Source of the DNA: Narcine bancroftii
Taxonomy: Eukaryota
Reading direction: 5' to 3'
NCBI RefSeq assembly: GCF_036971445.1
Contig: NC_091469.1
Span: 157,418,001 to 157,482,000 of the forward strand
DNA length: 64,000 bases
Part shown: piece by piece, positions 18,919 to 63,215 of the stretch
How positions within the stretch are numbered: position 1 is the stretch's first letter
How the letters are laid out: every line of letters starts with the position of its first letter
Position numbers and translations under genes: made by a program
The notes under the pieces: model-generated
What the model was told of the DNA's origin: nothing
The model's input: the letters and a program-made list of their open reading frames with translations, nothing else
Database searches by the model: none

Positions 18919-21150
18919 AATGGGAGGGCATTGAGGAATGCAGTGGAGCAGAAAGATCTAGGAATAACGGTTCATCGTTCCCTGAAGGTAGAATCTCATG
19001 TGAAGAAGGGTTTTGGTATGTTGACCTTTATAAATCAATGCATAGAATACAGGAGTTGGGAGGTAATGTTAAGACTGTTCAAGGCATTGGTGAGGCCAAA
19101 TTTAGATACTGTGTGCAGTCTGGTCACCGAATTATAGGAAGGATATCAACAAGGTAGAGAGAGTGCAGAGAAGATTTGTGTAAATGTTACCTGGGTTTCA
19201 GAATCTAGATTATAAAGAAAGATTGAGAAGATTAGGTCTTTATTATTTGGACTGTAGAAGGTTGAGAGGGGATTTGATAGAGGTATTTAAGATTATGAGG
19301 GAAATAGATAGAGTTGATGTGGATTGGCTTTTTCCCTTGAAGGTAGGAGAGATTGAAACAAGAGGTCATGAGTTAAGAGTTAAGGGGTAAAAGTTTAGAA
19401 GTAACATAATGGGAAACTTCTTCACTCAGAGAGTGGTGGCTGAGTGGAATGAGCTTCCGGGAGAAATAATGGGGGAAGGGGAAGGGGAAGGGTCCATTTT
19501 GTCATTTAAGGAAAAAGAGGTTAGGATGGGAGGGGAATGGAGGGTTATGGGCACGGTGCAGGTAGGTGGAAGTAGAGGAGAGGACTTGGTTCGGTGCAGA
19601 CTAGAAGGGCCGAGATGTCCTGTTTCTGTGCTGTAATCGTTATATGGTTATATAATAGAAGGCATAAATGGGGTACGTGTACATGGATGACAAGATCCTC
19701 TGGGAATGGACATAACAACACAACAAGAGGTTCATCAAAGTGCTACAACGCATCCAGATGTATGGATTAAAGTTAAACAGAGAAAAGTGTCAGTTTGGTG
19801 TGAAGGAAATCACCTTTCTGGGAGATAAACTGTCAGAAGCAGGTGTGGAGCCTGACAAGAGCAAGGTGAAAGCCATTTTAGAGATGCCCAGACCCACTGA
19901 CAAAAAAGACATATTGGGAGTGCTGGGAATTGGTGTATTACCACACATTGGTAAATTCATACCAAACCCCTCTTCCAAAGCAATGTACCTAAGGAAGATG
20001 ATACAGGACAAATGTGAATTCAAGTGGACAGACAACTGCGACGAAGAATGGGGACAACTGAAGGCCACTCTAACTACAGAACTAGTACTTTTGACTTTCT
20101 TTGATGCATCCAGAAGGACAAAAATATCCACGAATGCTTCAAAAGATGGAATAGGTGCCATACTCCAGGCTGTGGGAGAAGATTGGAGGCCAGTAGCAGA
20201 TGCATCAAGGACGATGACAACATTTGGATGTCGATATGCACAGATCGAGAAAGAGAGTCTTGGTCTGATCTATGGACTCGATAAATTCCACAGTTATGTG
20301 TATGGTCAACCAACATTCATGGCAGAAATAATCAAGAGAAATCTCAGTGAAATGTCGCTACAAATCCAAAGATTGATGATGAAGCTACAGAGTTATGACT
20401 GAATTGGTGTACACACCGGGGAAACTTATTGTGTTAGCTGATGCGTTATCCAGGGAAATGATGCAGAGTGAAGCACACATTGAGAGTTCCACAGAGACGG
20501 ATGTGAATCTCCACATGAACCTGATCACTGAATCTCTTCCCGAATCTGCCATAAAATCCAAGCAGATCTCAGCTGAAACAGAAAAGGGCACAGTTCTACA
20601 GAATTAAAACTCAAAAATCTGTAGACACTGTGGTTGAAGTAAAAACACAAAATGTTGCAGAAACTCAGCAGGTCAAACAATGTCCTTTATGTAGCAAAAG
20701 TAAAAATACATAACTGTGGCCTTCTCTACATCAGGGAGACACGTCACAGATTGGGCAATCACTTGCTCAGCACCTCTACTACGTCTGCCACAGCAGAGAC
20801 CTCCCAGTAGCCAACAATTTCATTTCTGAATCACTATCCCACACTCATATGTCTGTCCGTGGCCTTGTGTACTACCCCACCCTGACCACCCGCAGAATGG
20901 AAGAACAACACCTTATTTTCCATCTGGGCACCCTCCAGCCAGATGACATTAACAGTGACTTCTCTGCATCCTGCTAAACTTGCTTTTCTTTTATTTCCCT
21001 TCCCCTTTCCAATCCTCCCCTTGCTTTCCCCTCCACCCTCCCAGCCATCCCTCCTCCCCCCTGATTGCTACTCTCCCCTCCCTCCCTTCTCCACCTATCA
21101 TCTCCTGCCTTTGCCATTTCCACCCCACCCCCTAACCTTTTTGTTCAAAT

Positions 21151-23782: not shown

Positions 23783-24999
23783 ATGGCAGCGAAGAGAGAA
23801 AAGTCGAAAACAACGGGAAGAAAAGAGGAAGAAAGAATGTCGGAAGAAGAAGGTGAAGGCCTTACCTGTCCGAAGAGGCCCGCCGCGGAGAGAGAAGTTC
23901 GCTCCCGCAGGTCAGTGGAAGTCCCGGGCTCGGGACTACAAAAATGGCTCGCGGAGCCGAGTAAAAGTGCGCAACCGCGCATGAAAAAAAACACACTGAC
24001 GGGAGGGGGGAACAGCTGCGGAGTCGATCTCCACAGCTGAGAGAGACACCTGCAGCACAGCAGCAGGTGCAGAACACAGACAATAACGACAACAAGAAAG
24101 AAGAGGGTCAAAAGAAAACAAGGAAACAACAGATGGTCAACCCAGAGGAAGAAGAAGAAGAAGAACAGAAAGAAATGGAAGAAGAAGAGAAAGGCAAGAC
24201 AATGGATGTATCTTTTTTTAAAGAATATATGGAATCAGTGAAAGAATGGCAATTACAAGAATTTAATGAGATAAAAAGAAGAATTAAGAATGCAGAAGAA
24301 AAAATGAATAAAATGGAAATGGCCATGTCAGAATTGGCAAAAAGAGTTGAAAATATTGAAGAATGAGAAATAATCGTAGAAATGGAAGTAGAGGACTTAA
24401 AAGAGAAATTAGAAGAATCTAATAAAAAAGTTAAAGAGACACAAGAGCTGTTAGCTCAGAAGATAGATATAATAGAAAACTATAATAGAAGAAATAATAT
24501 AAAGATAGTGGGCCTTAAGGCAGATGAAGAAGGCAAGAATATGAGAGAATTTATAAAAGATTGGATCCCCAGGGTCCTAGGAAGACCAGAATTACAGGAA
24601 GAAATGGAAATAGAGAGGGCACATAGAACTTTAGCCCCAAAACCACAACCGCAGCAAAAACCAAGATCCATTTTAGTAAAATTCTTAAGATATACAACAA
24701 GAGAAAATATATTGGAGAAAGCAATGAAGAAAGTAAGAGAAGACAAAAAGGCACTGGAATATAAAGGTCAAAAAAAATTTTTCTATCCAGACATAAGTTT
24801 TGAACTCCTGAAGAAGAGGAAGGAGTTCAATATAGCAAAAATGATCTTATGGATAAAAGAATATAAATTTATGTTAAAGTACCCAGCGGTACTTAAAATA
24901 GTTATTCCAGGGCAACAAAACAGACTATTCTCGGATCCAGAGGAAGCACGAAAATTTGCAGAACAACTACAAAACAAGCAGAGAGATGAAGACATGTAA
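23783..24999 (+). pseudogene. L1 ORF1 (coiled-coil/RRM RNA-binding protein), disrupted
   Basis: ORF pieces 23783-24040, 24067-24366 and 24382-24999; in-frame TGA at 24364; the true start is uncertain. Confidence 0.75.
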
Positions 25000-25484
25000 T
25001 GAGAGTAAAAATGACCATGAACTATATGTATGTGTGTATATATATAGTGTGTATACATGAATGTATCCGTATTTAGAGGAAAATATATAGAGTATAGACA
25101 AGAATTAATAAGGGAGGGAAAGGGAATAGAGGGAATAAGGAGGGAATTAAAAGAGTGACCTTTGTTACATATGAAAATTGAAATCTATTCTGGGGGGGGC
25201 TGGGTGGGGAGGAGTTATGGTCACTGCAAAATCAGTTGACATTTGCGAGTGAATTCGCAAATCCAAATGGAGAGGGGAGATGTGGTTGCCCGACAAGGGA
25301 TAAAGGGCAACTCAGGAGGGGGAGGGGAGAATGGGGTTAAAGAAGTTTTAATTAGGAGAATAAGGAAAATGTTTGGTGTTTTAGAAATGTTGTCTTATAA
25401 AGTGTTCAAAACAAGAAAGCAGAAATGGATAAGAAGGAAAGGTGATGATGGAGAAACGGAAAGGAAAGATAAACAAAGTATGAA

Positions 25485-28400
25485 ATGGCTACGTTGAACT
25501 ATATGACTTTAAATATTAATAGAATACATAACCAAATTAAAAGGAAGAAACTGCTAAATTTACTGAAAAAAGAAAAAATTGATATAGCATTTGTGCAAGA
25601 AACACATTTAACTGAATTGGAGCACAAGAAATTAAAGAGGGTTTGGGTAGGACATGTAACAGCAGCTTCATATAATTCAAAAGCTAGAGGAGTAGCTATA
25701 TTAATTAGTAAAAATGTGCCAATTAAAATAAAAGAGGAAATAATAGATCCAGCAGGGAGATATGTAATGATAAAATGTCAGATATATTCAGAGTTTTGGA
25801 ATCTACTCAATGTATATTCACCTAACGAAGAAGATCAAAAGTTTATGCAAGATATTTTTTTGAAGATAGCAGATACGCAAGGGAACATATTAATAGGAGG
25901 GGATTTCAACCTGAATTTGGATTCAAATATGGACAAAACTGGGAAAAAAATTAACAGAAAGAACAAAATAACCAAATTTTTAATTAAATCGATGAAAGAA
26001 ATGAAACTTTTGGATATATGGAGGAAACAACACCCAAATGAAAAGGAATATTCATATTACTCGGCTAGACATAAAACATTCTCAAGAATAGACCTATTTT
26101 TGTTATCAGCTCGTGTGCAAGATAGAGTAAGAAAAACAGAATATAAAGCTAGAATATTATCGGACCATTCACCCTTGATTTTAACAATAGAGTTAGAGGA
26201 CATCCCTCCAAGAATGTATAGATGGAGATTAAACTCCATACTACTTAAAAGGCAGGATTTTAGAGAATTCATTGAAAGACAAATTAAAATGTATTTTGAA
26301 ATAAATACGGAATCAGTGAAAGATAAGTTTATATTATGGGATGCAATGAAAGCGTTCATTAGAGGGCAAATAATAAGTTATGTAACCAAGATGAAGAAGG
26401 ACTATAATCAGGAAACAGAGCAGTTGGAAAGGGAAATAGTAAATATAGAAAAAGAATTAGCAATGAAGGAAGATACAACTAAAAGAAGAGAATTGGCAGA
26501 TAAAAAAATAAAATATGAAACACTACAAACATATAAGGTGGAGAAGAATATAATGAAGACAAAACAGAAATATTATGAACTAGGAGAAAAAACGGACAAA
26601 ATTCTAGCATGGCAGCTTAAGACAGAACAAGCTAAGAAAATGGTATTGGCATCAAGGAAAAAAGACAAACAAATCACATATAATCCAAAGGAGATTAATG
26701 AAAACTTCAGAGAATTCTACGAACAATTATACCAAACTGAAAACGAAGGGAAAGAAGGGAAAATAGATGAATTTTTAACTAAAATTGAACTACCAAAATT
26801 ACAAATAGAGGAACAAAATAAATTAACAGAACCATTTGAAATAGTAGAAATACAAGAGATAATAAAAAAAATTACCAAATAATAAAACACCAGGAGAGGA
26901 TGGATTCCCAATAGAATTCTATAAAACATTTAAAGATTTATTAATTCATCCCCTCCTGGAAGTAATCAACCAGATTGATAAAACACAAAGCTTACCAGAT
27001 TTATGTAAAACAGCAATAATTACAGTAATACTAAAGCAAGGGAAAGATCCACTCGCACCAGCGTCATATAGACCAATATCATTACTTAACACAGATTATA
27101 AGATAATAGCTAAACTATTAGCAAACAGATTAGCAGAGTATGTACCTAAAATGGTAAATCTAGACCAAACTGGATTTATTAAAAAAAGACGCACAACAGA
27201 CAATATTTGTAAATTTATTAACTTAATTCATGCAGTAGAAGGGAGTAAAGCGCCAACAGTAGCAGTTTCTTTAGACGCAGAGAAGGCCTTTGACAGAGTA
27301 GAATGGAATTATTTATTCAAAGTATTACAAAAATTCAGTTTACCAGAGAAGTATATTAATTGGATTAAAGCATTATATAAGGGGCCATTGGCGAAAGTGA
27401 CAGTAAATGGATATATATCAAAGCAATTTAACTTAAGCAGGTCAACACGGCAGGGATGCCCATTATCACCCTTATTGTTCGCGTTAGCTATAGAACCACT
27501 AGCAGAATTGATAAGAACAGAAAATAATATAAAAGGGATAAAAATAAAAGACAAGGAATATAAAATCAGTTTATTTGCGGATGATGTTATAGTATACTTA
27601 ACAGAACCAGAACTATCAATAAAAGAATTATATAAGAAATTGAAGGAATATGGAGAAGTGTTGGGTTACAAGATTAACGTAAATAAAAATGAAGCAATGC
27701 CAATGAATAATGCGGATTTCTCAAAATTTAAGAAGGAATCACCATTCAGATGGCAAATGCAAGCAATAAGATACCTAGGTATACAAATAAATAAAAATCT
27801 CAATTATTATCCACTAATGAAAAAATTACAGGACGATTTAGAGCATTGGAAAGATTTACCATTAACACTAATAGGAAGGATAAACTATTTCAGGCATTGC
27901 CAATACACTTGACAGAGAAATTCTTCAAGGAGTTAAAGAAAATAATAAGGAAATTTTTATGGAAAGGGGGGGAAACCGAGGATAGCACTAGATAAATTAA
28001 CAGGATGGTATAAACAAGGAGGCTTACAACTGCCAAATTTTAAAAATTATTATAGAGCCGCACAATTACGATACCTATCAGATTTTTATCAAACAAGGGA
28101 AAAGCCAAATTGGACTAGATTAGAATTAGATAAAATAGGGGAAAAGATACCTGAACACATATTATATAAATGGGATGAAAAATTGGTACAACGTAGGAGT
28201 TCTCCAGTATTACATCATCTACTCAATATTTGGAAAAAGATTCATGTAGAAAGGAATAAAACAAATTACCAATTACCAAAACTAATATTGATGCAAAATA
28301 AGTTACTCCCTTTTACAATAGATAACCTTTCCTTTAGAGAGATGGAAGTCTTTTAAAGATCAGATTTTGAGAGTGCAAAAGCCTTATGTTCCTGTTAGGT

Positions 28401-38815: not shown

Positions 38816-39860
38816 TCAGATACATATCAATATCTGCCTTAAATACCCCCAATGATCTTGCATCCATAGCAAATTCCAGAGGTTCACCACTCTCTGGTTA
38901 AAGAAATTGCTCCACATCTCTGTTTGAAATGGGCGCCCTGCAATCCCGAAGTTGTGCCCTCTTGTCCTCGACTCCCCTCCCATGGAAAGCAACTTTGCCA
39001 CATCTACTCTATCTAGGCCTTTCAACACTCAAAATGCTTCTGTGAGGTCCCCCGTCCTCCTTCTGAACTCTAAGGAGTATAGTCCAAGAGCCGTCAAATG
39101 TTCCTCACATGCTATTCCCTTCATTCCAGGAATCTTTTCTGAACTCTCTCCAATGCCAGCACATCCTTTCTTAAATAAGGACCCCACAACTGTACCCCAT
39201 TCTCCAAGTGAAGCCTCACCAGTGCCTTGAAAACCCCCAACATCTTTTCCATTCAAATATTTCTTATTTTTTGGAATATACCCTCCTTATTTCTTCCAGA
39301 AATTCCAGCCATTGCTCATCTGCTGTCCTCCCTGCTCCTGTGCCTTTCCAATCAACTTTTGCCAGTTCATCTCTTATATCTCTGTAGTTCCCTTTATTCC
39401 ACTGGTATACGGACACATCTGATTTTAGTTTCTCCCTCCCAAACTGCAGGGTGAATTCTATCGTATTATGATCATTCGCTCCTAAAGGTTCCCTTACCTA
39501 CAGTTCCCTTATCAACTCTGGTTCATTGTACAATATCCAATCCAGAATGATCCCGGTCAGCTCAACCACATGTAGTTCTAAGAAGCCATCTCATAGGCAT
39601 TCTACAAATGTTCTCTCTTGAGATCCCATCCAACCTGGTTTCCCCAATCCACTTGCATGTTAAAATATAACTTTGCCCTTCTGACATGCCTTTTCTATTT
39701 GCTGTTGAATCCTTCCTGTAATGCAGTAACCAGATTAGACACAGTTGTCCAAGTGTGGCCACAACCAGTTTTTTCAGTGGCAACGAGATTTGGTAACTTT
39801 TATACTCAGTTCCTCAGGCAATGAAGGCAAGTATGCTGAATGCCTTCTTTACCACCTTAC
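38816..39860 (-). mobile_element. Decayed CR1 fragments
   Basis: LGLYSLEFRR, TRGHN and NQRVVNLWN remnants. Confidence 0.7.
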
Positions 39861-39864
39861 TAGT

Positions 39865-42800
39865 TGTGTGGCTGGAGATGGAAGGGTTAAATGTTGGTGG
39901 AAAACATGTTTAGATATATATAAAACAACTATTGAGGACAGCTGAGTGTGGTGAAACCACTTATATATGTAAATACCCTTGACCTTATATGCTCAACCCT
40001 GCTCGCACTGGCCGGCTTGTGACTCCTTCCCTTTATTCCCCATAAAGGCTGTCATGCCACAGCCCTGCCCCCAGTTTGAGTCCGGGTCAGTGTGAGGCAC
40101 AAACTCAAGGGATGCTGTCCATCTCCAGCTAATAAAAGCCTTCAATTCCAGTACTTCAGTCTCTTGGTTAATTAACTGTGTATCAATTTTATTAGTTAGA
40201 TTTTTGCTTCTTCGGAACATGGACAAGTTTCTGAAACTTGATCGCCTAGAAATCAACCCACGAGAACCCAATGGCCAAGGGATTCGCTCTCTGGCATCGC
40301 TATTTCAAAAGATTCCTTGCACCCTCTGCAGGCACGATTTAGGATAAGTACCATCTACTGCTCTCATATATTGGGCATCAGGTCTACCAGATGGTCCGGG
40401 ACTGCTGAACCCATGGAGAAGCCATGGACATTCTAAAAGACCAGTATAAGGTCCAGGTGAATGAGGTCTATACGTGGCACGTGCTCCACTCACGCAGGCA
40501 GAGACCCAGAGAGACATTCAATGACTTTGTCAGGGCCCCACAAGAGCTTGTAAGGGACTGTAACTGCCAAGCTGGTGAGTACTGAGCAACATGCGCAGCT
40601 ACTGATGAGAGATGCCTGTGTGGCGGGCGCCTGCCCTGACTACGTGAGGTGAAGGCTGCTCAAACAGAAACAATTGAGCCTACCTCAAACCATTGAGCTG
40701 GTGAATACCCTAGAATGGGCCATCCACAACGCTGAATCATTCTCCAGCGAGCACGCGGCCACCTCATGGGGGACTCGGGCGTCACCATCTTGGGGAGGCG
40801 GGATCATAAACCTCCCACTCTGACCTGACATCCACCGCTATCAGTGACCTCCCGATGTGCTATTTCTGCAGGCAGGGCAAGCACCCGAGGAAACGTTGCC
40901 CTGCCAAAGACGCCACCTGCGCCAATTGCGGGTAAAAGGGACACTTTACGAAGGTATGTAAGTCAAAGCAGAGCCCTTAACCCAGCAGCGCCGCATGCGA
41001 ACAGGGACCACCACCTCTGGGGAACAGGGATGCCCACGGAAGTGTGCTACAGAGACCAAGAACTGCTATGGTGTCACTTCCGTCTTCTCCCACGTCACTT
41101 CCAGTAATGACGCCACGTCACTTTCTCCTTCTCTTCTGGTGAGTGACGATGGAGCCACTTGCGAGCCATGGGGGCTGCCATCACAACCGCCATCTTGTCA
41201 GACGATTGGAAGACAATGGAACCCCTTGGACAACGAGATGACGCTGGCATAAGTAACCCTGGATCAATGCCGACCACATCAACTCTCCATGGCCATGATG
41301 AGCATCCAGGTAAAAAGCCACCCCATCTTGTGCCTATTTGACAGTGGAAGGACTGAGAGCTTCATTCACCCTTACACAGCATGGCAGTACTCCATGGACA
41401 TGCAGCCCATAAAATTCAGCGTCTCCCTAGCCTCACAGGCCAAATCGGCAAAGGTTCGAGAGGGAGCTGCACAGTAACCCTGATGGTCCAAGGCATTGTA
41501 TACACCAACTTTACGCGACTTGTCCTGCCACAGCTTTGTGCGCCCGTCATCCCGGGGTTGGACTTCCAATGTAACTTAAAGAATGTCACTATAGAGTATG
41601 ACGGGCCCCACCCTCCCCTCACGGCCTGTAATGAGCAATTCATGAACTAGGCGCTGCCCCCCTTCTCACAATGCTGACCAGCAGCCCCAGGCCATGCCAC
41701 CATGCTCTGGATCCACCCCTCCCCCTACTCCTGTTCACCAATCTCACCCCTGATGGTAAGCCTATTGGCAATACAGCGCCGAGGACAGGGCACTCATTAG
41801 GTCAGACACCTCCTCACTGAAGGGGTGATAGAACAAAGTACAAGCACCTGAAGAGCCCAAGTGGTAGTAGTCAAGAGCGGGGAGAAACACCAGGTAGTCA
41901 TAGATTACTTCCAGACCATCAACAGGTTCACACAGCTAGACACCTACCCTTTACCTGGCTTTGCTGACATGATGAATCAGATCACACAATACAGGGTCTT
42001 TTCCACCATCAACCTCAAGTCGGCATACCACCAACTCCACATTTGCCCTGAGGACCGCCAGTACACCACCTTTGAGGCGGATGGCTGACTGTACTATTTT
42101 CCTAGAGTCCCTTTTGGGGTCACAAATGGAGTGTCTGTCTTCCAAGGGAGATGGATCAGATGGTGGATGAACATGGGATGTGGGCCACCTTCCCATACCT
42201 TGACAACATGACTATCTGCAGCCATGACCAGCAGGTCACAACAGGAACCTCCAGAAATTCCTACACACCGTGAAGTGCCTTAACCTGACATATAATACAG
42301 GGAAGTGTGTCTTCAGCACATATCGCCTGACCATACTAGGCTGCGTGGTGAATAATGGAGTCATCACCCCCGCCCCTGACTGCATGTGCCCATTATTAGA
42401 ACTCCCCCTCCCGCACTGCCTCAAGGCCCTGAAAAGGTGCCTGGGCTTTTTCTCTTACTATTCTCATTTGGTCCCCAACTACACAGAGAAGGCCAGTCCC
42501 CTCAACAAAGCCACCATTTTCCCCCACGGCAGAAGTCCGCGAGGCATTTGACTGAATCACAGCCAACTTTTCTCTGGCCGCCACACTACACCAGGTGGGC
42601 AGGCCTGTTGCATTTTTTTTCACACACCCTCCAGGGCCCTGAGATCTTGGCACTCTTCCATCGAGAAAGAGGCACAGGCAATCGTTGAAGCAAAAAGGCA
42701 CTGGAGGCATTACCTTGCCGGAAAGCATTTTACCCTCCTGACTGACCAACAGGCAGCCGCCTTCATGTTTAACAACCAGCAGTGGGGTAAAGCAATAAAA

Positions 42801-44060
42801 TCCTGAGGTGGAGAATCGAGCTCTCCACCTACAATTATGACATATTGTACCAGCCTGGAAAGCTCAACGAGCCTCCTGTCGCCCTGTCTCGGGAGAAATG
42901 TGCCAGTGCGCAGACATTTCGGCTGCAGTCGCTGCACGATGGCCTCTGCCACCCCGGGACCACCCGCTTTTTTTTCATTTCATTACCTCCCCTGCTCCAT
43001 TCACCACGTCCCAGGATGCTGACCAAAAATTGCTGGGTTGTGTTTCCACCAGCCTGACAAGTCACACCTGATCACATGCCCCTTTAAACGTCTAAGTGTA
43101 GACTTCAAGGGTCCCCTATCCTCCATGAACCACACTTCATCACCATCATCGATGAGTACTCGCGGTTCCCCTTCACCATCGCTGCCCAGACATGACCACA
43201 GCCACCGTCATAAAGGCTCTGAGCAACCTGTTTACCATTTTCAGATACCCCTGCTACGTCCACAATGTTAGAGATTCATCCTTCATGAGCAACGAGCTGC
43301 ACCAATTCCTACAGTCTAATGGCATTACCTCTAGTGGGACCACCAGGAATGGCCAGGTGGAGCTGGTGAACGGTCTGGAAGTCAGACCTTAAAGTCCAAG
43401 GGCCTTCCCATCTCCACGCTATCTGGTCCCTCCTGTGTACAGCCACCAATGTGACACCTCATGAGAGACTCGTTACATTCCCCAGGAGATTGGGATCAGA
43501 AATGACCCTACTTACCTGGCTGATGTCCCCAGGACCAGCACTCCTGCAAAAACATGTAAGGACCCATAAGTCTAACCCAAATTGAGAGGATCCAGCTGCT
43601 CCACGCCAACCCACAGTGCGCCTAAGTGGCATTCCCAGATGGATGTGAGGACACAGTATTCATCCGGGATCTGGCACGTGCGGGAGGATCTGGACCCCCC
43701 CCCCCCCCCCACCTCTAGCCAACAGTCGGGTACCCCTCTCCCAGCTCTCCAGGGCTTCAGATTCCCACACCCACCCCCTCGACCTACCAGCCACCTAGTA
43801 CACTTGCATCCACACCCCCCACCCCCTCAGCTCAGCCAAACACCCCGGCCAAGCTGACTGAGAACGAACAGTCACAACCGATGGGGGGCACCACACCACC
43901 GGAGATGCACCGGTCAAAGGAAGCCACCGGACGGACTGAACATATGAGGGCACCTGACTGGACCACAACAAACCCCCCAACCCCGGGAATTCTTTTTAAA
44001 AAGAGGGGGTGAATGTGCTGGAAGGTAAATAACTTTGACCTTATATGTTCGACCCTGCTG
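39865..44060 (+). mobile_element. Decayed Gypsy LTR retrotransposon (element A)
   Basis: 5' LTR about 39865-40185; gag from 40219; protease LFDSG; RT YPLP..LKSAYHQ; RNaseH and integrase (DFKGP); PPT aagagggggtgaa; truncated 3' LTR from 44014. Confidence 0.88.
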
Positions 44061-44600: not shown

Positions 44601-44989
44601 TTACTGAAGGCAGATGGGAGTCTGTGCAAACTGAGAAACTGTGATCGATGGATATTTCCACGGGTTGATATATTTGTGCTGGGGACCAGGAGAGTGACAG
44701 GAGTTTTAAAGGCTATCAGCCATGATCCAGGTGATATGGTGGAACGGGGTTGAGGGGCTGAAGGTCATCCAGTGCCTATCTCCCTCTGTGAAATGTAATA
44801 AAGCCATCAAACCCAGGAACATTCCCACCAAATGCTACGCAGTGCACCGTTTCAATTTACATTTAGACATACAGCACGGTAACCGGCCATTTTGGCCTAT
44901 GAGCCCATTCTGCCTAATTACACCCCATTGACCTACAACCTCCCCTCCCGGTACATCTTTGAACAATGGGAGTTTACTTAGAGACTCAC

Positions 44990-45352
44990 CTTTTTTCACA
45001 AAGCAGAGAGCAAAACCAGCCAAAAGCAGGATAACAGCTGCACTGGATATTCCAATAGAGAGAGCCAGCTTGAATGCATTAATTCCCCCCGTGGGTGAGA
45101 GGAACTCGCGGCTGTCTCTCCCATATTGGTTCTTGGCCACACAGTGGTAGCTCCCTGTCAGGCTGGGTTGAAGCAGCTCTACCGTGATTTGATCTCTCTC
45201 TGGACCTCGTCTGACTCTCGTCCCGCTGCTGTTCATGGCCAGCGTGTTGTTCCCAGGGCTGATCCACGTGATGTCTACAGGAGGCACCCCTTCAGCTGTG
45301 CACGAGAGTGTGTCTCCAGCCACAATTCGCAGCTGCAGGATGGCCGCTGGGA
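44990..45352 (-). CDS. Siglec-15-like receptor, exon encoding C2-set Ig domain plus transmembrane helix
   Basis: Acceptor tttcctctccaag|TC, donor AAAG|gtgagt, phase 1/1. Contains LSCTAEGVPPVDITW..GSYHCVAKNQYG, then hydrophobic LALSIGISSAAVILLLAGFALCFV and a KK stop-transfer. Confidence 0.92.
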
Positions 45353-45804
45353 CTTGGAGAGGAAAGAAAGTCGAGTTAATCTCCACTGGACGGGGTGTGG
45401 CGAAGGAATCCGCGTGAGGTGACGCGCAGGAGATTGGAGGAAAATATTCAACGAGGAAACGGGCCATTGTGATTGCTCTCGCGTTGGTGTGGATGCTGGA
45501 GACAGGATTCAACGTCCCCAGTCGGCGTATGCATCTTCACAACACAGGGTCTGGAAATTTAGCAGCTCAGTGGGATCCTGAACCTCCAACCTTGTCACTG
45601 GAAGTGTCAGCTGATCAGGGTCAGAATTGGCAGAGGAGATAGGGGCAGCGTTGAGTAAGGAAGTTGAGCCCAAAAGCAAGAAAGGGACCCTCAAAGGATC
45701 GGGCCAATCTGGCTCCAGCTCCTCAGCAGGAGCTCCTGAACCTCCTATTCATGTTCAATGTGTTTTTATTGTTAACACAACAATATTGACAGATTTTTCC
45801 TTAC

Positions 45805-50709: not shown

Positions 50710-52963
50710 AAAGGCTCATTTAGGTAGTAAAAAGGGATTGAATGCAAGGAGGCCTTGCTGTGTGGTTACAGAATGCAGAGGTTGGTTGTCAATGGAGGTG
50801 AATGGTGTTCCACAGGGATCTCATCTCACCTGGGACCCCTCCTGTATGTGTTTTTTATAAATGTCCTGGATGCGATGATCCTAACCCGAAACTAAGCTAC
50901 TCCATCACCACCAAAAGATCTGCCTGTAGTAATGAAAAACCACCATTTACTCACACGAAATGCAATGTGAACACTGTGGAGTGTTTCCAGCACTTTTGTG
51001 TATTTGCACGGCCAATCAACTACCTTCAATTTCATGTAAGTTATTTGTTTGTAGGACACACAAAGACACAATGCTAATCCCTTCAGATTTCTCTTCAGAA
51101 AACACCCCTTAACCACGACCCTCAGACTTCCATCATCAAGCAAATTTTGGATTGTTTGCCAACAATCACGTGCTTGTACCTTCGACATCTGCCTATCACT
51201 TGGGATTTTGTCAAAGGTCCATGTGAACCATGACCACCATGCCGTCCCAATTGATTTCCAGAGTTAACTCTTAACAACTTTTTCCCCCAAGCCACCAGGC
51301 TCTTGAATTCCCAGAACATATGTAGTACCATGGACTTTTACTGTATATGTCTTAATATTTTAATATTTCATTGTGTTTAACTTCTATTCTAATTTACATT
51401 TATTTATATCTACTCCGTGGCCCTGGAGAAACGCTAGCTGTCTTCACTAAAGAAGCATGGGATGAGTGTCAAATAAAGGTGACTTGACTGGACTTGAAAA
51501 ACTAATTTGTGAGGTAGTATTTTCCCTGCAGAAGAACATTGTGACTTCATCTAATTAGTCCCTACATTTCCAAGAGAGCAGAAATCCTGTCTCAGTGCTT
51601 TTTCCAACAATTTCCCTGTCATTGATAGAGCTCCCTGGGCTCTACTTCCTGGCCTATCCTTTCTGATCTGTGGTTCACACCAATCCAAAACATGTCTATT
51701 TGAGCCCCACCAATCTCCTCCCTTCCTTCTCATAGCACTGTGGGATAGATCCTCTCAATCCCTGGGGATTTATCCATCTTGATGCCAATATGTCCGATAA
51801 TACTTCCTCGACCAGATGTGTTCCAGAGTATCAGCGTACCCCTCCTTGAACTTTCCATCCTACATGTCCTTCCTGGTGAATGCCGCGATCCTGTTCATGT
51901 TCCCTGGTTGATATCCACTTTCAGGACTAACGCATTCCCCCGTAACCTCTTCCTTTGAATGGACTAATAGAGAATTTTTGGATTCTCCTCCATCCTATTT
52001 ATCAGGGGCTCTGTTGCTCTCTTTTTGTCCTCATAACGTGGCAAAGAAAAAGACCCTTTGGCCCCAGTTCCTTCTGCACATCCTGGTCAAATGCACACGA
52101 TAGATATTCCTCTATTCCTCATAACCAAGCATATCGTGCAGTCTCTTAAATGCTGCTCTCATATCTGCTTCTTCCATTTTCCCCGGCAGTCCATTCCAGG
52201 AACCAAGCACTGGGTAAAAATACCTCGCACTGCACATCTCCTTTAAACCCCCTCCCCTCACCTCCAAATGCATAATTGGACACGGTTACACCGGGAGAAA
52301 GGTTCTATCTACCTGATCTGTGCCTCTTCTAATTATATAAACATTTATCAGAGCATCTCTCAACATCTGACACTCCAGAGAAAACCGCCTGTTTGTCCAA
52401 TCTGTTCCCATCCCCCCGATCCAGGTTGCACTCTGGTAAAGGAGTGAAACACGCAAGTCTGCAGACGCTGCGCTTGTAGTGAAAATACACATAAATTCTG
52501 GAGGATGTCCTGTAGATCCTTCGTGACCGGCCGAGTTCCTCCAACGTTCTGTGTTAGCACTCTGGTAAATCTCCTCTGCACCCTTTCGAAAGCCATCCCA
52601 TCCTTCCTGCAGTTGGCGAACGGAATTTCATGCAATTCTCAAAACGCAGCCTCACCAAATGTTATATTGTTGCAACATGACTTGCATCCAAACCAAGACT
52701 TTTATTAGCAAAAGACAGGAGCTCTTCACAGATGGCCGACCAGTCCGGAATGATCCGACCTGGCTAGGGACACAACCCTTTAAGGCCCAGACAATAGTCG
52801 TGGCTTAGCTCTCAGCCAATCGCTGTAAGCACAGTCTAGATACTGTAACTATATACACTATATACATTGGTGATAGATCTGTACTATCACATTCACCCCT
52901 TCTTGGAGAATTGGCCCTGGGAAAAAAAAACAAAAACGAGGGAGAATGAAAGGAAGGGGTAGG

Positions 52964-55692
52964 TCAAGGACTGTAGCGGTCAGGGGGTCTGACCATCCGG
53001 CGTGACCGCCGTGGTGCCGGGATTGGGGTCGCTGGAGTGGTGTCGCCAGTGGGCTCGTCGGGTGCGACTGCTCCGTCGCTCAATTCCCCAGTCGTGTTGT
53101 CGGCAGGGTGGCCCGGGTCATTGGGGTGCTGTTGGTCTTTCTGTTGCGGCACGGGGCCTGGAGAATAAGGAGTTGGGGGGTTTGCTGGGTCTACCGCGTC
53201 CTGAGCTAGGTCCCGCACCGAAACAGTGTCCTCCCGCCCGTCTGGGAACTCAACGTAGGCGTAATGTGGGTTTGCGTGGAGTAGAGTCACTCGGTCGACC
53301 AAGGGGTCGTTCTTTGAGTGCCGGACGTTGCGTCGCAAAAGGACGGGGCCAGGGACGGTGAGCCATGCCGGTACAGTGGTTCCTGATTCGGATTTCCTCG
53401 GGAAAAGGAACATCCTTTCGTGGGGGGTGGCATTTCTTGCAGTACATAGGAGGGAGCGGATGGAGTGTAAAGCACTAGTGAGAACCTCCTGCCAGTGAGA
53501 GGTGGGGAGACCTTTAGACCGGAGAGCCAGTGTAACCGCTCTCCATATGGTGGCATTCTCCCTCTCGACCTGGCCGTTACCGCGTGGGTTATAGCTGGTG
53601 GTCCTGCTTGAAGCAATACCACACTCCAGAAGGTACTGTTGCAGCTCTGCACTCATGAATGAGGACCCCCTATCACTGTGGATGGAATTGGGGTACCCGA
53701 AGATTGTGAAAATACTGTGAAGGGCCTGTATCACTGAGGTGGCAGTGGTGTCTGGGCAGGCCACAGCGAATGGGAAGAGGGAGTACTCGTCGATGGCCGT
53801 AAGGATGTAGGTATTACGGTTGGTCGACGGTAGGGGCCCCTTAAAGTCTACGCTAAGATGCTCGAAGGGGCGGGTGCCTTTGATAACGTGGGATTCAGCG
53901 CACACCGAACAGGCTCGGGTCATGGAGCGGATCTCCTCGACTGTGTAGGGTAAGTTGCGCGCCTTGACAAAGTGAGCAAACCTAGTGACCCCTGGATGAC
54001 AGAGCGCCTCATGGAGTTTCCGTAGTCTGTCCATCTGTATGCTGGCGCACGTCCCCCTGGAGAGCGCGTCAGGCGGGTCGTTGAGCTTACCAGGCCGGTA
54101 CAGGATGTCATAGTTAAAGGTGGAGAGTTCGATTCTCCATCTGGCGATTTTGTCGTTTTTTATCTTACCACGCTGGGTGTTGCTGAACATGAAGGAGACC
54201 GCGCGTTGATCAGTCAACAGTGTAAAGCGCCTCCCAGCAAGGTAATGTCTCCAACGACACACTGCTTCAACTATGGCCTGGGCCTCCTTCTTGATCGAGG
54301 AGTGTCTACTCTCCGGACCCTGGAAGGTTCTGGAGAAGAAGGCTACAGCCCGACCGGCCTGGTTCAAGGTGGCTGCCAGGGCGAAGTCGGATGCATCGCT
54401 CTCGACTTGTAATGGGACAGACTCATCAATCGCGTGCAGCGTCGCAGCAGCGATGTCAGATTTGATTCGATCGAAAGCCGCTGTGGCTTCGGTCGAGAGG
54501 GGAAAAGAGGTGGTCTTGATAAGAGGACGCGCCTTGTCGGTGTAGTGTGGAACCCATTGGGCGTAATACGAGAAAAGGCCCAGGCAACGTTTGAGTCCAT
54601 TAGGGGACGCATGCGGTCAGGATCTGGCATGACTATCCCGTTCTCCACCACACAACCTAGAATAGCGAGTCATGTGGTCCGGAAGATACACTTGTCCAAA
54701 TTGTAAGTCAGGTTTAGCTGACGGGCAGTTTGAAGAAATTTGTCTAGGTTGGCGTCGTGGTCCTGCACGTCATGGCCTCAGATGGTGATATTGTCAAGAT
54801 ACGGGAAGGTAGCGGTTAGCCCGTTCTGGTCCACCATCCTGTCCATTTCCCGCTGGAAGACTGCGACATCATTCGTGACCCCGAATGGTACCCTGAGAAA
54901 TTAATATAGCCGCCCATTCGCTTCAAAGGCCGTGAATGGTCGGTCCTCGCAGCGGATCGGAAACTGGTGGTAGGCCGAACGTAGGTCAATAGTGGAGAAA
55001 ATGCGGTATTGGGCGATCTGGTTCACCACATCCGTGATGCGTGGCAGGGGGTACGCATCCAGGAGCGTGAAGCGGTTAATGGTCTGGCTATACTCGACCA
55101 CCATCCGTAGTTTTTCCCCATTCTTGACAACCACCACCTGGGCTCTCCAGGGGCTTGAACTGGGTTCGATGATGCCCTCATCCAGCAATCTACGCACCTC
55201 ACTCCTAATGAATTGCCTGTTTTCGTAACTATATTGCCGACTTTTGGTGACCACAGGCTTCCAGCCAGGGGTGAGGTTTGCGAAGAGTGCTGGCGGGGCA
55301 ATCCGGAGTGTGGAAAGGCCGCAGGATTGGCCCCGGGGCATGGGGGCAGGTTGCTCGGGTGCTTCGGGAGTGGGGCGATGGCAGACCGAGAGGGGGGCGT
55401 GGGGTCCCCCAAAGTGGAGGGACACCATTTGGAACTGACACTGGAAGTCTAATCCCAGCAACACTGGGGCGCACAATTGGGGAAGGACGAATAATTTGAA
55501 GTGGGTGACCGTCACGCCCTGTACTTCCAGCGTGGCGATGCAATACCCCTTTATCCCAGTCGAGTGCGACCTCGTAGTGGGGATAATGTCAAGTCCCCAA
55601 CGGAGGGCCAGATCTGGCTGGATAAAACTGTCAGTTGACCCAGAGTCAAATAAGCAATTGGTGTAGTGTCCATACACTTTAATCAGTTCCAT
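52964..55692 (-). pseudogene. Gypsy pol (PR-RT-RNaseH-IN), broken by stops and frameshifts
   Basis: LFDSGS, YPLP, DLRSAYHQ, LLTDQ, DALSR, DFKGP, HSDRG and GNGQVER across ORFs 54901-55692, 54364-54651 and 52964-54367. Confidence 0.9.
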
Positions 55693-55743
55693 TGCTCTGG
55701 TGAGGGGATGAGAGCATTGCTGGTTTAGTGTTATTGAAGCAGT

Positions 55744-57054
55744 TTACAGGGGAGTTTTGCGCGATGACGTCACGCACTGAGATGACGTCACGCAACGGGA
55801 TGACGTCACGTAACGGGATGCCGTAGTCAACGCTTGAGGAGCAGGTTGGAGGACCTCCCGGAAGTGCTGTTGTGGCGGCGTTGGCGGGTGAATGGTAAGT
55901 AGTGGGGTTTGTAGTTGCTCGCGATTGGCGGTGGGTAGGTCGTTGATCGCGGCGGTCGGGCCCTGGCGGTCGTCAGCGATGGACGCTAGGGTGAGCATCT
56001 GGTTGGCCGCGGGGTTGGCTGTGGCGGCGGCAGCAGCGGCGGTAGCGTCGGCCCCGGGAGTGGCTGTGGCGGCGGCAGCAGCGGCGGTAGTGTCGAGTGT
56101 TCCGCATGGGGGCGAGAGGCGGGCCATCACCATGGTTGCGAGGGTGGGTTGCCCCTTCCGGGTTTGGCGTCTCCGTGACGTCAGGCGTTGCCGTGCAGGG
56201 GAGCCCTCGCTCTCATTGGACGAGAGCTCTGGGGAAGAAGAGTTTGAATGGGATAGTGGCGATTGGGCTTCACACGAGGCACTGTGTTTGCCGGCGGCCA
56301 TTTTAGACCTGCAGACTGCAGCAAAGTGGCCTTTTTTAAGGCACTTCTGGCACTTGGCTTTTCTTGCTGGGCACTGGGACCTGCTGTGCTTGTCCCTCCC
56401 GCAGAAATAACATTTTGGGTTCGCACGGGTCAGTGTAGCAGCAGCCAACAGGCCGTCAGTATCTCGGGGGGTGGTAGGGTAGAAGGGCACTCTATTCACA
56501 TCAGAACGTGGGTTCCAGTCCCTCGAGAACTCAGTGGACTTTAAGGCTGCATCCTCCATTGTGATTGCAATCCGGGCCACGTCCTCTAGTTTTTCTACCC
56601 CTTGCTCGAGCAAGAGCAGCCTCACTTCGTTCGATCGGAGCCCGGCCACATAGGCATCCCGGACGAGATCGTTTGTGATCTCGGCAGCAGTTTTGTCCAC
56701 ACAGTTACAGTCCTTGCCCAATGCCTTTAATACTTGTAAATATGCCCTGCTGGACTCGCTGGGCTGTTGCTTCCTCGAAGCAAGCACGAGCCGGGCATTA
56801 ACTCTGTTCACCGGTTGATTATACAGTCCTTTCAGTACCTTTATGGCTGCGGTGTAAGTGGTCTCATCCTGGATGTTCTCGTAGACTCTCAAGGACACCA
56901 TAGACAGCAATGCTGTTAGACGCTGGTTATCCTCCTCTACCTGAATGAATCTCAGGAAGTTTTCAAAGTTCAGCAGCCAGAAGTTAAAGGCTTTGAAGGC
57001 TGTAGCTGACTGTGGGTCGATATCAAGTTTTTCTGACCGAGTCAAACGCTCCAT
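55744..57054 (-). CDS. Gypsy gag (two CCHC zinc knuckles, Ala-rich C-terminus)
   Basis: MERLTRSEKLDIDP..; CYFCGRDKHSRSQC and CQKCLKKGHFAAVC; ATG at 57054 just after the LTR. Confidence 0.85.
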   Translation of the reverse strand: MERLTRSEKLDIDPQSATAFKAFNFWLLNFENFLRFIQVEEDNQRLTALLSMVSLRVYENIQDETTYTAAIKVLKGLYNQPVNRVNARLVLASRKQQPSESSRAYLQVLKALGKDCNCVDKTAAEITNDLVRDAYVAGLRSNEVRLLLLEQGVEKLEDVARIAITMEDAALKSTEFSRDWNPRSDVNRVPFYPTTPRDTDGLLAAATLTRANPKCYFCGRDKHSRSQCPARKAKCQKCLKKGHFAAVCRSKMAAGKHSASCEAQSPLSHSNSSSPELSSNESEGSPARQRLTSRRRQTRKGQPTLATMVMARLSPPCGTLDTTAAAAAATATPGADATAAAAAATANPAANQMLTLASIADDRQGPTAAINDLPTANREQLQTPLLTIHPPTPPQQHFREVLQPAPQALTTASRYVTSSRCVTSSQCVTSSRKTPL

Positions 57055-57729
57055 CCCTTCCAAAAAAAATTCTTTTGCTAATAAAATTGTAGAGCTCGTC
57101 GAAAGAATCAAACACTTGTTGATCCAAACCAAGGCTTTTATTAGCAAAAGACAAGAGCTCTTCACAGGTGGCCGACCAGTCTGGAATGATCCAACCTGGC
57201 TAGGGACACAACTCTTTACGGTCCAGACAGTAGGTGTGGCTTAGCTCTCAGCCAATCGCTGCAAGCACAGTCTAGATACAGTAACTATATACACTATGTA
57301 CATTGGTGATAGATCTGTACGATCACAATGCCCACTTTCAAGGAGCTAAAAATCAGGACCCCCCGTTCCTTCTGCACATCAATGTTTATAAGAATCCTGT
57401 CGTTGTACTTTCCCCTGACCTTTAACCTTCCAAAGAGCTGCATCTTACTCTTGCCCCGATTAAATTCCGTCTGTCTTTAACGGATCTATTTTAGAATTCT
57501 TTGATAGCTCTCTGCACTGCTCACAAGTTCACATTTTGTGTCATCTGCAAACTTTCCTAATCCACCTACCTCCTTCTTAATCCAATCATTTCTCTACATT
57601 ACCAACAATAGGCGTCTACTGAACGTTTACATTTTGTTTCACAGATGGGACTCAGTTCTCACCTTCTATTCTTCTCTGATGTACACAGGCATGGACAAAT
57701 CTCCTGCGTCTGCTTGGATATACCCGATG

Positions 57730-62968: not shown

Positions 62969-63215
62969 TGCTAGTGACACGGAGATCCCAGGAAGCAGGA
63001 AGGAAGACACTGCGGTAAACCACTGCTGTATGTATTTGTCTGGTCAGGCACACCCATTGGCCCCTCCCACAGGCATCTGTATAAAGGTGACTGTTCCACG
63101 CCCCCCCCCCCCTCAGTGCAGGACAGTCGAGCTGTGTGGATATGACTTTGTTTTTTTAGTGAATAAAAACCTTTGGTTTCTCAACCTCAGTCTTTGAGTA
63201 ATTGATGGTGCCTCA
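62969..63215 (+). mobile_element. Probable solo LTR related to element A
   Basis: TATAAAGG..AATAAAA..ctcagtctttgagtaattgatggtgcctCA resembles the LTR end at 40131-40185; 5' boundary uncertain. Confidence 0.6.

Follow-up and report, generated by a model that had tools for sequence, protein, structure and literature searches.

What is the role of the base pairing between the 5′ LTR's end and the leader behind it in the Gypsy elements of this locus? In two elements, A and B, of the 64-kb window (the whole stretch of DNA that was analysed) a segment near the LTR's 3′ end, arm 1, is complementary to a segment directly downstream of the LTR, arm 2. The pairing might arise by chance, protect a signal in the RNA, structure the leader or supply a primer for reverse transcription. 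These explanations were compared using the two elements and their relatives in other genomes.

Elements A and B in the window

The window is rich in repeats, and LINE fragments are numerous. The features of elements A and B and of a related solo LTR are compiled in Table 1. Membership in the Ty3/Gypsy class is evident from the PR-RT-RH-IN order, the TG...CA LTRs, the polypurine tract and target-site duplications in 8/9 relatives; the best solved match was Ty3 Gag-Pol. Two tandem CCHC motifs, i.e. a double zinc knuckle, were found as a pattern in the Gag of 100/120 homologues. No chromodomain was among the 19 Pfam families matched by 36 proteins of the lineage (0/36, E 0.01), and the integrase C-terminal tails are short and of low complexity. 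As a chromodomain match was missing in 36/36 proteins, the lineage was not filed under Tf1/sushi.

The pol region of element B shares 94% identity with a Narcine bancroftii record, and the next named matches come from sharks and rays, so that a cartilaginous fish is the probable host. Contigs of four public runs have loose ends at both ends of the element B LTR, at 57088 in three runs (10, 29 and 24 contigs) and at 57327 in four of four runs, which supports these two LTR boundaries. Among the displayed differences between element B and the run contigs (two rows were not displayed), those within the arms affect only the two outermost positions of arm 2. The summed contig depth over this LTR (57088-57327) greatly exceeds that of the internal part in all four runs; contig depth does not equal copy number, and the excess suggests that many solo LTRs exist. 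Between Gag and protease, element B contains an Ala/Thr-rich tandem repeat (56000-56100, minus strand), of which the closest protein record has more copies. The polypurine tract of element A (43998-44013) and those of related loci usually have GAA directly before the TG of the LTR, with AAA in the family of L001.

Other features of the window are a LINE-like A-rich element on the plus strand (24367-27912; endonuclease domain 25473-26879) with a similar stretch at 1138-1366, and part of another LTR element, the third and more distantly related (19674-20454, plus strand), whose RNase H domain shows 24% identity to a relative of B. Just downstream of element A, an open frame with an immunoglobulin I-set domain (44838-45536, minus strand) is probably a host gene exon. 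ARAGORN found no tRNA gene in the 64-kb window, and Rfam gave no match in 39800-40400.

Table 1. Positions of elements A and B, their predicted functional segments and the related solo LTR within the window.
Feature	Position	Strand	Remarks
Element A, whole	~39950 to 44059	+	Strongly decayed; 3′ LTR truncated
Element A, 5′ LTR	39950..40185	+	CA 40184-40185 exact; 5′ start approximate; homology to 3′ LTR remnant and solo LTR
Element A, TATA-like motif of the LTR	40041..40047	+	97 nt upstream of arm 1 end; putative function
Element A, arm 1 in the LTR	40124..40137	+	Predicted self-primer; AATAAA inside at 40131-40136
Element A, GCCT	40138..40141	+	Immediately 3′ of arm 1
Element A, loop	40138..40186	+	49 nt; remainder of LTR plus one spacer base
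Element A, arm 2	40187..40200	+	Primer-binding-site position, CA+1 nt; without TGG
Element A, gag-pol, decayed	40219..43679	+	Broken gag, protease, RT, RNase H, integrase (tblastn); ATG at 40219
Element A, polypurine tract and spacer	43998..44013	+	
Element A, 3′ LTR, truncated	44014..44059	+	
Element B, whole	57327 to 52686	-	
Element B, 5′ LTR	57088..57327	-	240 nt, TG...CA
Element B, arm 1	57136..57151	-	Predicted self-primer
Element B, arm 2	57071..57086	-	Primer-binding position; complementary to arm 1 at all 16 nt
Element B, gag-pol, interrupted	52964..57054	-	Protease, RT, RNase H, integrase; no chromodomain match
Element B, 3′ LTR	52686..52891	-	Ends ~14 nt past arm 1 (cut off)
Related solo LTR	63014..63215	+	5′ start approximate; end of arm-like motif 63168; without arm 2

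The stem in elements A and B

The stem of element A was found as originally predicted. It consists of 12 Watson-Crick pairs, one G-U pair and one C-A mismatch around a loop of 49 nt, and arm 2 starts 1 nt after the CA of the LTR. In element B, which is encoded on the minus strand, all 16 bp are perfect and the loop again measures 49 nt. The solo LTR has its terminal CA at 63214-63215, at 47 nt from the arm-like motif (in A the distance is 48), and lacks a complementary segment downstream, which also agrees with the prediction. The two elements had been regarded as independent, a view that had to be given up: they belong to one clade, the 3′ ends of their LTRs are homologous and their RT sequences share ~50% amino-acid identity, a value obtained by comparing the decayed element A with a close relative of B. 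The inner 10 bases of the LTR arm are identical in A and B, and 15 identical bases extend across the arm end. Covarying outer bases, another part of the prediction, exist at pairs 11 and 13, which are changed on both sides; no other compensatory pairs were seen.

The two elements could simply share an A/T-rich match that arose by chance and was kept by common ancestry. Element A by itself is modest evidence, its score being reached by 12/3000 shuffles of the upstream 160 nt and at 45/9207 CA+1 sites within the window. The score of element B occurred in 0/3000 shuffles. In a 240-nt context, folding of element A predicted the inner 11 pairs with probabilities of 0.56-0.74 and the outer three with values of at most 0.03. 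In both elements the region as a whole folds in an ordinary way, no better than after shuffling (z is 0.26 in A and -0.51 in B), and its folding energy is uninformative. The chance explanation was refuted by the stem counts in the wider clade, with a stem in 27/28 families, and we regard it as exceedingly improbable.

The stem is present throughout the clade

Relatives were gathered with 12 aligned Gag N-termini as query, in a search made purely at the protein level, in which the LTR played no part. This yielded 82 loci, 80 of them from metagenomes (the best 80 of 148 confirmed) and two from genome contigs; 75 had at least 59 nt of upstream DNA and were usable for the stem search. Two clade elements, L081 and L082, lie in contigs filed as bacterial MAGs, most likely as eukaryotic contamination, and no relatives were found in the viral contigs searched. 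Named homologues come from rays, sharks, corals, sea cucumber, crustaceans and nematodes.

A fixed rule that examines the LTR end alone located the junction in 56/75 loci; the stem, for which a score of 9 or more was required, was present in 51/75. A relaxed scan of the remaining 24 loci detected a stem in the same register in 10. Among the 14/75 stemless loci, one has a deletion of arm 2, and 13 show no recognisable LTR end or arm 1 and were judged by eye to be truncated. Two loci, L073 and L077, were mis-assigned by the junction rule, and both score 16 on other scans.

Clustering resulted in 38 families including A and B, 28 of which had a usable representative (the first by id). The stem score was at least 9 in 27/28 representatives and at least 12 in 22/28, with a median of 14; the families are related, and stem and pair counts were made without tree correction. 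When arms were swapped between families, the median dropped to 6, with at least 12 in 14/756 combinations and at least 9 in 105/756, a number made possible by the shared TAAA/TTTA core. Shuffled sequences reached a score of 9 in 1.7% of 5600 cases. The median Gag identity among representatives is 48%. The stem is thus a real feature, and the original claim of a selected RNA structure has to be divided: a conserved pairing between LTR and leader is strongly supported by the wider clade, but not by the A/B pair with its two compensatory pairs.

The identical loop of 49 nt, to which the prediction had also pointed, exists in A and B and is not conserved beyond them. Loops range from 27 to 87 nt (median 43) across 27 families and measure 49 nt in three, so that this length is not a clade property. 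The list of loop lengths includes L033, which was mis-registered by a bulge and dropped from the pair counts (leaving 26 families), and L062, whose loop includes a tandem duplication. In L062 (94-262) the LTR end together with arm 2 occurs twice in tandem before gag, which is either a real duplication or an assembly artefact.

Arm 2 lies at the position of the primer-binding site

Comparison of 5′ and 3′ LTRs fixed the LTR end in 9 long loci, and 5-bp target-site duplications flank 8/9 of them (in A and B both 3′ LTRs are cut, and the duplication is not measurable). In all nine, a single base separates the CA from arm 2. A primer-binding site starting with TGG was absent near the LTR in all loci with independently fixed ends; one base and a run of T were found instead. 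Arm 2 is positioned 16-42 nt ahead of the gag ATG and in some cases directly adjoins it; the leaders measure 16-42 nt. In the family of L001 the spacer base and arm 2 make up the entire 16-nt leader from CA to the gag ATG, which leaves no room for a tRNA site.

The closeness to the gag start would also suit a structure in the leader that serves packaging, dimerisation or the control of translation, with a tRNA or tRNA half priming at a site that is split or non-canonical; other LTR elements do use half-tRNA priming, as described in the available sections of PMC6317226. Under this explanation one would not expect arm 2 to track arm 1 from family to family, as it does, rather than a fixed host RNA, and the concerted change in one young family described below counts against it as well. 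We consider a leader structure combined with tRNA priming decidedly unlikely.

Strict Watson-Crick pairing and a sharp inner end

At the inner positions 1-12 of 26 families, 302/312 cells are Watson-Crick pairs, 1 is G-U and 9 are mismatches, a count inflated by keeping families at a score of at least 9, by scoring G-U as half, by forcing position 1 to pair, by the junction motif, which determines the first three bases of arm 2, and by the omission of L033. Three or four types of Watson-Crick pairs occur at each of positions 5-12, except for position 10 with two types. Pairing is kept in 23-26 of 26 families through position 13; for positions 14-17 the numbers of families are 19, 12, 12 and 8. 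In 26/26 families the nucleotide behind arm 1 is unpaired with the one behind the CA, which means that the inner end of the stem is sharp. Directly 3′ of arm 1, the motif RCCT is present in 20/26 families, and a helix of at least 4 bp starts right after arm 1 in 19/26 families compared with 4.5 expected; this hairpin is absent in A and B.

Position -10 of arm 1 is a G in 23/26 families, with pyrimidines just upstream at -12 to -15. This arrangement looks initiator-like and may indicate where transcription starts or where the RNA is cut. A transcription start lying exactly 11 nt upstream of the cut is one possibility, but pairs 12-13 covary as well. TATA-like motifs were identified 97 nt before the arm end in A, at -85 in the 3′ LTR of B and at -89 in the solo LTR. 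Over 26 families any TATA-like match was found in 7, at scattered distances, and none was consistent in invertebrate-type families. If the motif of the fish elements is functional, transcription would start ~50-65 nt before the predicted cut, placing the primer inside the transcript, unlike in Tf1.

A concerted change was found in L009, which belongs to a young family of 9 copies and differs by 1.1-1.6% from its 8 sisters. One substitution is present in arm 1 of both LTRs, and arm 2 carries its counterpart. A single copying step would account for this if the element rebuilds its primer site from the primer. Such recopying is not automatic in the Gypsy superfamily, since, according to the accessible text of PMC7472051, HIV and MLV remake the primer site from the tRNA primer and Ty1 and Ty3 do not copy it into the PBS. 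For Tf1, about half of the cDNA keeps a single-stranded PBS copy, as stated in the available part of PMC11042837. One-sided arm changes in L021, L054, L055 and L079 look like decay after insertion.

The change in L009 is a single event that could also be obtained by DNA template switching. More generally, switching at the inverted repeat, at the DNA level or by RT, might keep the arms matched without any role in priming, and would equally lead to strict Watson-Crick matches and concerted changes. It leaves unexplained the constant end of the repeat at CA+1, its persistence among families whose median Gag identity is 48%, and the way in which the element primes. We rate it as very unlikely.

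Overlap with the poly(A) signal

In HIV-1, a hairpin masks the 5′ poly(A) signal. Here, too, the 5′ poly(A) hexamer of A and B lies within the paired region, so the stem might hide the signal of the 5′ LTR, with something else serving as primer; arm 2 is absent after the 3′ LTR, and the arrangement is hence specific to the 5′ LTR. Arm 1 contains AATAAA or ATTAAA in 17/26 families, A and B included. In contrast to HIV-1, the partner strand is found beyond the LTR, at the position of the primer, and families that lack the hexamer keep the stem. No canonical hexamer is contained in arm 1 of 9/26 families (two have it in the loop only, seven in neither), which shows that masking is not the general purpose of the stem. 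In L013, L014, L041, L045 and L046, five members of the family of L010, the arm is non-canonical and AATAAA is placed in the unpaired loop. Masking as the sole function also leaves unexplained the CA+1 register, the lack of another primer site and the single G-U among 312 cells, and is in our judgement unlikely. As a second role of the stem it is plausible, if tentative; in A and B, masking of the 5′ signal is a possible side benefit.

A model for self-priming

Position, register, the near absence of G-U pairs and the concerted change point more specifically to a self-primer on its primer-binding site. Most of the observations would be accounted for if the stem is, as we consider probable from the sequences, a Tf1-like self-primer paired with the element's own primer-binding site in a chromodomain-less Gypsy lineage that uses no host tRNA. 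In this model, the arm 1 RNA of the LTR would anneal antiparallel to arm 2 at the primer-binding position. The RNA would be cut between arm 1 and the following hairpin, at the RCCT junction, presumably by RNase H as in Tf1, and from the new 3′ end, at the inner end of arm 1, synthesis would proceed through U5 and R. Minus-strand synthesis would thus be primed one base outside the CA, and the primer may be supplied by either the 5′ or the 3′ LTR copy. Plus-strand synthesis would recopy arm 1 into arm 2 in each cycle, so that the match between the arms would stay strictly Watson-Crick. The fixed register predicts the exact end of the primer.

If true, self-priming would be present in a second, widespread animal lineage without chromodomain, and tRNA-free priming would have originated, or been retained, more than once. 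The failure of tRNA-based annotation to find a primer site in these elements would also be explained. Furthermore, the elements would escape silencing by tRNA fragments that target primer sites, a topic of PMC7472051 according to its available text.

A more far-reaching version is possible but rather doubtful. Self-priming may have evolved separately in a non-chromoviral animal Gypsy lineage, with an internal LTR primer that overlaps the poly(A) signal in place of the capped 5′ end, is released at a conserved hairpin and possibly derives from the 3′ LTR copy or from short LTR transcripts acting in trans; a single duplex would then both mask premature polyadenylation and prime.

Comparison with known systems

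Mag elements are primed by tRNAs. The double CCHC knuckle and the basic C-terminal tail in the present lineage resemble, as we assume, those of Mag-type elements, and both groups have a wide metazoan range. The Mag lineage of metazoan Gypsy elements comprises, in the accessible descriptions, the A, B and C clades as well as MolGy3, MolGy11 and PolGy1. The available parts of the papers and supplements on mollusc and annelid Gypsy elements (including PMC6238403) contain no primer data and no matching or clade-labelled sequence. Other candidates for self-priming were dismissed on the basis of the accessible text of the respective reports: the tapeworm elements lennie and ta-TRIM have a tRNA-Leu site (PMC4558846), and Saci2-like elements use tRNAs (PMC12471100). 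No primer information was found in the parts of the Troyka paper that were searched.

Some Gypsy entries of Repbase reportedly mention self-priming. A search of titles and the beginnings of abstracts, which covered few subscription journals and no Repbase Reports, found no description of self-priming in a non-chromoviral animal Gypsy clade. In the available portions of the literature, Gypsy self-priming is tied to Tf1/sushi chromoviruses and their plant relatives (PMC6317226, bioRxiv 2022.12.06.519325). Neumann et al. require for a self-primer a complementarity of at least 10 bp that starts 0-5 bp after the LTR, as given in the accessible text of PMC6317226, and element B and most relatives show such a complementarity. 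The plant elements Tcn1 (Gypsy) and TAR (Copia) were predicted to be self-primers by the same sequence criterion; they differ from the lineage described here in belonging to other lineages and hosts, and Tcn1 is chromoviral (available sections of PMC6317226).

The closest parallel is provided by Tf1 and Tf2 of Schizosaccharomyces pombe and Tj1 of S. japonicus, which, as far as the available parts of the reports describe them, have the same geometry as the stem presented here (PMC4600332, PMC5341516, bioRxiv 2022.12.06.519325). They share with the present lineage the Ty3/Gypsy domain order, the lack of a tRNA site, a segment after the 5′ LTR that is complementary to an LTR segment, and an extra helix beside the primer duplex. 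Several differences were noted. Tf1 uses the 5′ end of its RNA as primer, whereas here arm 1 may be situated ~50 nt inside the transcript. Unlike in Tf1, arm 1 usually overlaps the poly(A) hexamer. The three-duplex 'pretzel' of Tf1 includes duplexes adjacent to the PBS, whereas the second helix of the present lineage is a local hairpin in the loop, seen in 19/26 families. Finally, Tf1/sushi chromoviruses have a chromodomain at the integrase C-terminus, for which the 36 proteins of the lineage described here gave no match, and the double zinc knuckle seen in 100/120 homologues of this lineage is a further difference.
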